Made by a program: the position numbers
DNA from: Escherichia coli O157:H7
GTDB lineage: Bacteria > Pseudomonadota > Gammaproteobacteria > Enterobacterales > Enterobacteriaceae
Strand: one strand, 5' to 3'
Length of the DNA stretch: 64,000 bases
NCBI RefSeq assembly: GCF_013167455.1
Contig: NZ_CP038328.1
Part shown: positions 6,001 to 7,381 of the stretch, in pieces
Layout of the letters: every line of letters starts with the position of its first letter
Position numbering within the stretch: position 1 is the stretch's first letter

Positions 6001-7381
6001 ACCAGGTCGACCGGTGAGAGCGGGTTAACCTTTGCAGTATCGCCACCGAGGCGTTTAACCGCTTCGCGCATTGCCGCCAGATCAACAACGGCAGGTACGC
6101 CGGTAAAGTCCTGCATCAGCACCCTTGCCGGGCGGTAGGCAATTTCACGGTCAGCATGGGCATTTTTCAGCCATCCCGCCAGCGCGTGGATATCCTCTTC
6201 GGTAACCGAGTTACCATCCTGCCAGCGCAGCAGATTTTCGAGCAAAACTTTGAGTGACTTGGGTAGACGGGTGATATCGCCCAGTGATTTGGCAGCAAGC
6301 GGCAGGCTGTAGTAGTGGTAAGTTTTATCTTTGGCCTGCAACGCGTCCTTACTGGCTTCTCGTAGGGTTGACGACATAGCTCCTCCTTAATGACAGGGTT
6401 GCGAAGCCCTGATTCTCTTCAGGGTGAATATTAAAGATAACACAAACATCGCGTAACGATTTGATAACAACCCAAATTGATAAAAGAGGAGAAACCTTGT
6501 GGCAAAGCAAATGACAACCCCGCCGCAGCGGGGTCAAGGATCAGTGAGTAATGATCCAGAGGAGTTCGGCCCAGAAGAGCATCGACAGAGAAAATGCACC
6601 CATCCAGGACCAATATTTCATATTTGTGTTGATCATAGGCTACACCCTTAACGGTTATTACTTTGTGTTGAGATAACTCAACCTGTTATTGCTGCGGTGT
6701 ATTAAAAGCCCTTTAATTCATTAAAAATGGGTAATAATAATGATGATAATTATTGTTTCGGCTGATCATCTTCAGCAAACAGTTCTATAAAGGCTTGCTG
6801 CTGCGATGTTAGTTGCCAGTCGTCTGGAATAACGACGGAACATTCCCGTTTCGTTTCGGGTTCATTGTCACTATGCTGGCATAATGGTGACGACTCCAGT
6901 TGCTCCTGACCAACCATAGTTATCCCCACACTTTCCAAATCAGCAGTGCGACAACCACCCAGAAAAGTGCAGAACCAAGAAAAACCGCCAGCCAGGCTTT
7001 ACGTTTTAATTCAGGATCGCGGCGGGGTTCCTGATTTCCAGAAGGCATTGCTAACCTCATATAATCGCCATCACTTATCAGCAAGACGTTGAACGATTGG
7101 TGTAATTAATCATACGATGAGACAAATCCTAAAGAAACTTTAGTCAAAAATCCAGCGAATTTACGAATCGTCTCCAGTGAATAATTCAATCTTTTGACCT
7201 GAAATAGATATTTGAAAACTGGAATTTGCGAGGCGGGTAATTAGACACTACTTTACAGGTAATTTACCCTATAAATATGAGGGATAAAAATATTGTGCAC
7301 GGTATACAAATAAGTAACAAAAGAGAATATATTCCGGCACCTTCGCTACATAAAAGGTGCCGAAAATAACGCAAGAAATTA

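Follow-up and report, generated by a model that had tools for sequence, protein, structure and literature searches.

The closest described systems are the PhoPQ-induced small membrane proteins MgrB, MgtS and PmrR, the attenuators built on short upstream open reading frames (uORFs; mdtU-mdtJI and mgtL-mgtA), and the Rfam family STnc180 (RF02079), which is catalogued as a small RNA. YmiA and YmiC, encoded between cysB and acnA in Escherichia coli, resemble MgrB, MgtS and PmrR in being single-pass inner-membrane proteins of at most 50 aa that are induced by low Mg2+, and overexpression of YmiA likewise prolongs the lag phase (Vellappan et al.). Unlike these three, they have no known target or feedback role, and their deletion has no known phenotype; the two sets of proteins are unrelated in sequence, and no clear PhoP box was found at ymiA. 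By analogy, YmiA and YmiC may act like MgrB, MgtS and PmrR, and would bind a larger protein of the envelope and modulate it during Mg2+ or envelope stress. The resemblance to the attenuators lies in the layout around ymiC, a short ORF with a terminator-like hairpin close behind it and a larger gene downstream. In contrast to the attenuators, ymiC has neither an alternative anti-terminator pairing nor sensing codons, and it encodes a membrane protein that is conserved; the hairpin is retained where ymiC is missing, and a separate promoter serves acnA. STnc180 matches the locus over its full length, but the catalogued "sRNA" contains the translated ymiC ORF and the terminator and is better called an mRNA segment.

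The window analyzed here is a stretch of 64,000 nucleotides from E. coli O157:H7 (contig NZ_CP038328.1), and all coordinates refer to it. The order on the minus strand is cysB (8353..7379), ymiA, yciX, ymiC and acnA (6377..3702). The small frames between cysB and acnA are very probably the known minus-strand operon ymiA-yciX-ymiC. The features of the locus are as follows.

7100..7255, minus strand: promoter and regulatory region of ymiA, non-coding and near-invariant in a 42-species nucleotide alignment
7131..7118, minus strand: RcsB box TAGGATTTGTCTCA, conserved, overlapping the Salmonella-mapped transcription start site (TSS) of ymiA, which corresponds to about 7119
7060..6920, minus strand: ymiA, 46 aa, RefSeq WP_001300896.1
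7048 and 7084, minus strand: alternative ymiA starts, an ATG (42 aa) and a TTG (54 aa), respectively
6917..6750, minus strand: yciX, 55 aa, RefSeq WP_000233043.1
6709..6507, minus strand: Rfam RF02079 (STnc180), matched at 197.5 bits (gathering score 50) and spanning the ymiC 5' leader, coding sequence and terminator
6630..6704, minus strand: conserved RNA element between yciX and ymiC, with the motif AUACACC-N-CAGCAAUA, a hairpin at 6681..6666 and GGUGU at 6646..6642
6636..6541, minus strand: ymiC, 31 aa, MINTNMKYWSWMGAFSLSMLFWAELLWIITH, RefSeq WP_001310756.1, a single-pass small membrane protein
6505..6536, minus strand: terminator-like hairpin (hairpin 6536..6515), GACCCCGC-UGCG-GCGGGGUU, −15.9 kcal/mol, followed by a weak U tract, predicted by a terminator scan
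6380..6483, minus strand: acnA proximal promoter P2 and 5' UTR, with the TSS at −50 (about 6427); downstream context, outside the operon

The operon and its coding frames

In a genome comparison, the cysB-acnA intergenic kilobase showed 100% identity to E. coli O157:H7, and the same segment was found in 5421 of 5426 complete E. coli genomes. When the RefSeq annotation of the identical genome was mapped on the window, ymiA, yciX and ymiC were placed at exactly the coordinates listed above. The layout in a K-12-derived strain was identical with respect to gene order, spacing and flanking genes; YmiA and YmiC were identical to their counterparts there, whereas YciX differed by one residue (P20T). 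The locus is the O157:H7 allele of K-12 ymiA-yciX-ymiC, with no difference of substance, and the K-12 genes are presumably b4522, b4523 and ymiC. All three genes are already annotated and have been studied experimentally, the locus is already known, and the current understanding of it is unchanged by our results. What is added here is the codon-periodic conservation of the three frames, a covarying terminator hairpin, a leader hairpin, and the assignment of STnc180 to a segment of the ymiC mRNA.

For comparison between species, 80 loci of Enterobacteriaceae and Erwiniaceae were fetched, with CysB as an unbiased anchor. The order cysB-ymiA-yciX-ymiC-acnA was retained in most of them. Escherichia albertii (L005) was without ymiA, yciX and ymiC and had a cysB-acnA gap of 259 nt. 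Two other lineages (L047 and L053) were without ymiC only and kept the hairpin, which there follows yciX. Klebsiella had, of the three genes, only a divergent ymiA.

Pairwise comparison with E. coli gave pN/pS values of 0.24 for ymiA, 0.46 for yciX and 0.33 for ymiC in the annotated frames, and of 0.8-2.0 in the other two frames, all of them biased by the selection of the alignments with tblastn. The coding test was therefore repeated on a nucleotide-only MAFFT alignment of 42 loci. In this alignment, conservation at the first, second and third codon positions was 0.70/0.83/0.47 for ymiC and 0.78/0.82/0.49 for the C-terminus of yciX, and codon periodicity was absent from the flanking non-coding stretches. 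The ymiA, yciX and ymiC frames evolve as coding sequence. An earlier note, made from the sequence alone, had pointed to a cluster of tiny ORFs between acnA and cysB. These ORFs are real, being present in 5421 of the 5426 genomes and showing codon-periodic substitutions, and small genes of this kind can be recovered by a reader from raw sequence alone. The checks that the note had proposed were also positive: published ribosome profiling covers the YmiA start and YmiC, and reading frames and starts are conserved across the enterobacterial loci. Its remark that such genes are often missed does not hold for these genes, all three of which are in RefSeq.

YmiA begins with MRLAMPSGNQ and ends with KVWG. 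Its basic N-terminus (net charge +4) is followed by one transmembrane helix, and the hydrophobic stretch comprises residues 24-42 with a 19-residue Kyte-Doolittle mean of 2.54. The protein matched the families PF22868 (125.9 bits, cut-off 27) and NF000536 (96.8 bits, cut-off 30). The description of this ORF in the earlier note, 46 aa with one transmembrane helix, was thus borne out by hydropathy, RefSeq and the family models. The 46-aa protein has been quantified by PRM-MS at roughly 1000-3000 copies per cell, and GFP-YmiA and GFP-YmiC were both observed at the membrane or cell periphery (Vellappan et al.). YmiC has one hydrophobic segment of transmembrane length and matched PF23694 (87.5 bits, cut-off 27) and NF041484 (66.3 bits, cut-off 42). 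The identical sequence was published in 2018 by VanOrsdel et al., who detected YmiC by chromosomal SPA tagging, and it was also seen in tetracycline ribosome profiling (PMC6001520). The 31-aa ORF at 6541-6636 had been described as hydrophobic and unlisted; the ORF and its hydrophobicity stand, while "unlisted" does not, as it is ymiC, with a RefSeq accession, two family models and a publication. According to the published work, YmiA and YmiC are bona fide small membrane proteins: both are made and inserted in the inner membrane.

A regulatory role, as suggested for these ORFs in the earlier note, is unproven: the single deletions of ymiA and ymiC were without phenotype, and the one effect on growth, a slowing accompanied by longer cells, came from YmiA overexpression (Vellappan et al.). 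YmiA, YciX and YmiC are strongly conserved and their expression is regulated by stress. Starting points for finding their function are the way in which the ymiA stop codon adjoins the yciX start, the hairpin in the ymiC leader, the terminator close to the ymiC stop codon and the identity of STnc180 with ymiC mRNA.

The region upstream of ymiA

The ∼150-200 nt upstream of ymiA (7255-7100) were near-invariant in 42 enterobacterial species and more conserved than coding third positions. The cysB/ymiA region has been catalogued as a "promoter island" (PMC3661553). In reporter assays, the region upstream of ymiA drove expression in low Mg2+ in a PhoQ-dependent manner and the region immediately upstream of ymiC had negligible promoter activity; ymiA, yciX and ymiC behaved as one operon (Vellappan et al.). 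The published work shows that the operon is transcribed from this conserved region and is induced, dependent on PhoQ, by Mg2+ limitation. A search for the PhoP box (T/G)GTTTA-N5-(T/G)GTTTA upstream of ymiA returned three matches of at least 9/12, compared with 2.2 by chance, and there was no enrichment over shuffled sequences. As no canonical PhoP box stands out, the PhoQ dependence may be indirect.

In Salmonella, the RcsB motif of ymiA (TGAGACAAATCCTA) spans +1 to −13 of the TSS, and a log2 fold change of −1.10 was reported (PMC7913699). The window carries the exact reverse complement of this motif at 7131..7118, and by homology with Salmonella the E. coli ymiA TSS would lie at about 7119. 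Within the near-invariant block 7100-7255, only this RcsB box is explained. Expression of yciX falls 3- to 12-fold under a LolCDE inhibitor, a drop that may run through Rcs. A Klebsiella gene of the YmiA family is de-repressed in an ompR mutant.

Two further features were observed between cysB and ymiA. A 27-aa ORF at 7106-7189 on the minus strand is in the ymiA frame with a single TAA in between, and this frame is open in several genera. It was rejected as a coding candidate because its conservation is at the nucleotide level and not codon-periodic and it lies upstream of the Salmonella-mapped TSS; it is probably not coding. Directly 3' of the cysB stop codon, a strong terminator-like hairpin with 13 pairs is located at 7332-7365 on the minus strand. 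It presumably terminates cysB transcripts and sets cysB apart from the regulatory region of ymiA.

The ymiC leader, the hairpin behind ymiC and acnA

In the yciX-ymiC spacer, the GGUGU sequence is located 7-11 nt before the ymiC AUG, close to the Shine-Dalgarno region, and can pair with ACACC at 6700..6696. The structure of the leader was assessed with the covariance models R1 and R2 and an alignment (A4) of 35 sequences. In this alignment, whose CM-based construction leans towards the model, 90% of cells were paired and double changes were present in 44 cells, compared with 12.8 in shuffled alignments (0 of 500 reached this number). All six pairs of the inner hairpin covaried. RNAalifold recovered only 3 pairs from a plain MAFFT alignment of the leader, and single-sequence minimum free energy z-scores were unremarkable (about −1.1). 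The outer ACACC/GGUGU helix is weakly supported since it is mostly invariant, while the inner hairpin alone is well supported. Both helices are also part of the Rfam consensus for STnc180. The leader element could act as a gate for translation of ymiC, or as a binding site for Hfq or a small RNA.

At the other end of ymiC, the terminator-like hairpin starts 5 nt past the stop codon and stops 138 nt short of the acnA ATG, and the tail that follows it in E. coli (GUCAUUUGC) is U-poor. In most loci, a hairpin with different stem sequences was found 2-9 nt past the ymiC stop, ending 131-150 nt before the acnA ATG. It was kept ∼136-139 nt before acnA in the genomes without ymiC (L005, L047 and L053), the distance in E. 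albertii being 139 nt. Because the same distance to acnA is kept where ymiC is missing, the hairpin is taken as a general operon terminator or insulator. It is best read as a predicted terminator of the operon and an insulator before the proximal promoter of acnA.

This promoter forms a near-invariant block at 6483-6420, and a transcription start p2 at −50 has been cited to Cunningham 1997 (PMC2760140). The position of the distal promoter P1 was not confirmed in our literature search, in which only P2 at −50 was. A conserved hairpin (CAGGGCUUCGCAACCCUG) was observed in the P2 5' UTR at 6411..6394 on the minus strand. The available part of the Term-seq data of Adams et al. contains a Rho-independent 3' end at K-12 position 1335835, 4 nt into acnA, which is flagged "uORF"; this end corresponds to about 6373 in the window and falls just downstream of the 5' UTR hairpin. 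None of the 3' ends listed in that part of the data falls at the hairpin behind ymiC (K-12 about 13356xx-13357xx).

Alternatively, ymiC could be mainly a regulatory uORF for acnA. A ribosome at the ymiC stop codon would block the terminator stem, and read-through into acnA, by transcription begun at the ymiA promoter or at a distal promoter of acnA, would depend on ymiC translation. This is rather unlikely. The pair ymiC-acnA is among the candidate uORF pairs listed by Adams et al., but their 3' end lies inside acnA and not at the ymiC hairpin. The stop-to-hairpin distance of 2-9 nt in most genera and the weak U tract in E. coli are compatible with such a mechanism, yet the hairpin stands at the same distance from acnA in genomes that have no ymiC. 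A distal acnA promoter, which we take to lie ∼407 nt upstream, would place ymiC in the leader of that transcript; acnA has, however, its own conserved promoter downstream of the hairpin. The conserved leader structure could gate ymiC translation as required of a uORF, but YmiC is conserved as a protein and is hydrophobic and membrane-localized, unlike typical leader peptides. A uORF role and a membrane-protein role of ymiC are not mutually exclusive.

A more elaborate form of this idea, which we consider unlikely, joins the leader and the tail of ymiC into a translation-sensing switch. The ACACC/GGUGU helix, possibly with Hfq and a small RNA, would gate ymiC translation, stop-proximal ribosomes would suppress the weak terminator, and transcription that is PhoPQ-driven, released from Rcs repression or started at a distal promoter would read into acnA. 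If this were true, the levels of aconitase A would be tied to Mg2+ or envelope stress, with YmiC also being a membrane protein. The preferred reading is that of a predicted operon terminator and insulator behind a gene for a small membrane protein.

The Rfam match bears on the nature of the ymiC transcript. STnc180 was first recovered by Hfq co-immunoprecipitation in Salmonella, where only bands of 500-2000 nt were detected and were called likely processed mRNA species (Sittka et al. 2008). The RF02079 consensus itself carries the ymiC AUG, codons and reading frame. Since the consensus holds the ymiC ORF and the discoverers observed long bands only, STnc180 is regarded as a segment of the ymiC mRNA; with a translated ORF inside it, it is not a discrete non-coding small RNA. 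A base-pairing, Hfq-binding small RNA, either non-coding or dual-function, is very unlikely to be the product of this segment. The strong RF02079 score, the Hfq co-immunoprecipitation from which the family originates and the conserved leader motif and hairpin would suit such an RNA, but the family consensus contains a reading frame with codon-periodic conservation whose protein has been detected, the Northern blot bands were read as processed mRNA, the sequence just before ymiC shows hardly any promoter activity, and there is no known target. We therefore treat STnc180 as ymiC mRNA.

Start codons of ymiA and yciX, and the YciX protein

The MRLAMP start of YmiA is backed by ribosome profiling of initiation complexes. 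Among 54 enterobacterial loci, the ATG at this position (7060) was present in 35, with a GTG in 4 more. The ATG at the MPSG position (7048), preceded by a GAGG Shine-Dalgarno (SD) sequence, was present in 53 of the 54, and an ATG further upstream (MISD...) in 44, the corresponding codon being CTG in E. coli. The 46-aa YmiA is the experimentally supported form in E. coli, and the comparison across loci leaves the start unsettled; evidently it moves between lineages.

For yciX, the mechanically longest ORF runs from a TTG at 6938 to 6750 (62 aa) and overlaps ymiA by 19 nt. The RefSeq start is the ATG at 6917, 2 nt 3' of the ymiA TAA. In 52 of the 53 loci carrying both genes, an in-frame yciX ATG was located 0-9 nt past the ymiA stop codon, usually at 2 nt (TAA-NN-ATG). 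The SD-like UGGGG before this ATG consists of the final Trp-Gly codons of ymiA and was likewise conserved in 52 of the 53 loci. Outside Escherichia, a TTG equivalent to the one at 6938 was seen in just three loci, and a stop codon directly upstream of the ATG closed the yciX frame in five Citrobacter loci. Because the ATG is so widely conserved and the frame is closed in these Citrobacter loci, ymiA and yciX abut and do not overlap. A true 19-nt overlap, with yciX initiating at TTG 6938, is extremely improbable: in E. coli the frame is indeed open from 6938 and begins with a TTG, but this codon is restricted, the Citrobacter frame is interrupted, and the conserved ATG behind the SD-like GGGG is the start used in RefSeq. 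The overlap at 6920-6938 that the earlier note had described is an artefact of start choice, and taking the longest ORF creates a false gene overlap in such cases.

The abutting ymiA stop codon and yciX ATG suggest translational coupling. Translation of yciX would be coupled to that of ymiA by termination and reinitiation, with the SD-like UGGGG lying within the last ymiA codons.

By its sequence properties, YciX is an acidic (net charge −9), non-hydrophobic, soluble protein. Synteny and the C-terminal motif P-x-SW-x-LT-x-QQ-x-FI-x-x-F were conserved in 52 distinct sequences. An AlphaFold2 model built with 33 homologues showed a helix at residues 38-51 (pLDDT 83-88), which covers the conserved motif, and the N-terminal 30 residues were predicted to be disordered. 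YciX is not regarded as a membrane protein, since it is strongly acidic, non-hydrophobic and predicted to be disordered save for the C-terminal helix, and the label of small membrane protein was misapplied to it in the earlier note. No Pfam or NCBIfam model matched YciX, and a word-indexed homologue search returned only Escherichia and Shigella. An exhaustive profile search returned only 75 cluster representatives, all of them small except for a 1200-aa match that was regarded as spurious, and revealed no informative larger domain context. A fold search from the AlphaFold2 model was set aside, because one confident helix provides no fold worth searching. A possible partner of the acidic YciX helix is the cytoplasmic N-terminus of YmiA, which is basic.

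A variant of the locus carries a 17-nt deletion inside ymiA between the direct repeats TTTTCTTGG and TTTTCTGGG (L083:601-894, corresponding to about 6953-6969 of the window). With this deletion the transmembrane helix is lost and the N-terminus of YmiA continues in frame into YciX, resulting in a protein of 97 aa. The deletion was found in none of the 5426 complete E. coli genomes and is therefore regarded as a rare variant or an assembly artefact. The YmiA-YciX fusion has 37 member sequences in JGI data, on metagenome contigs, and similar variants are present in ENA.
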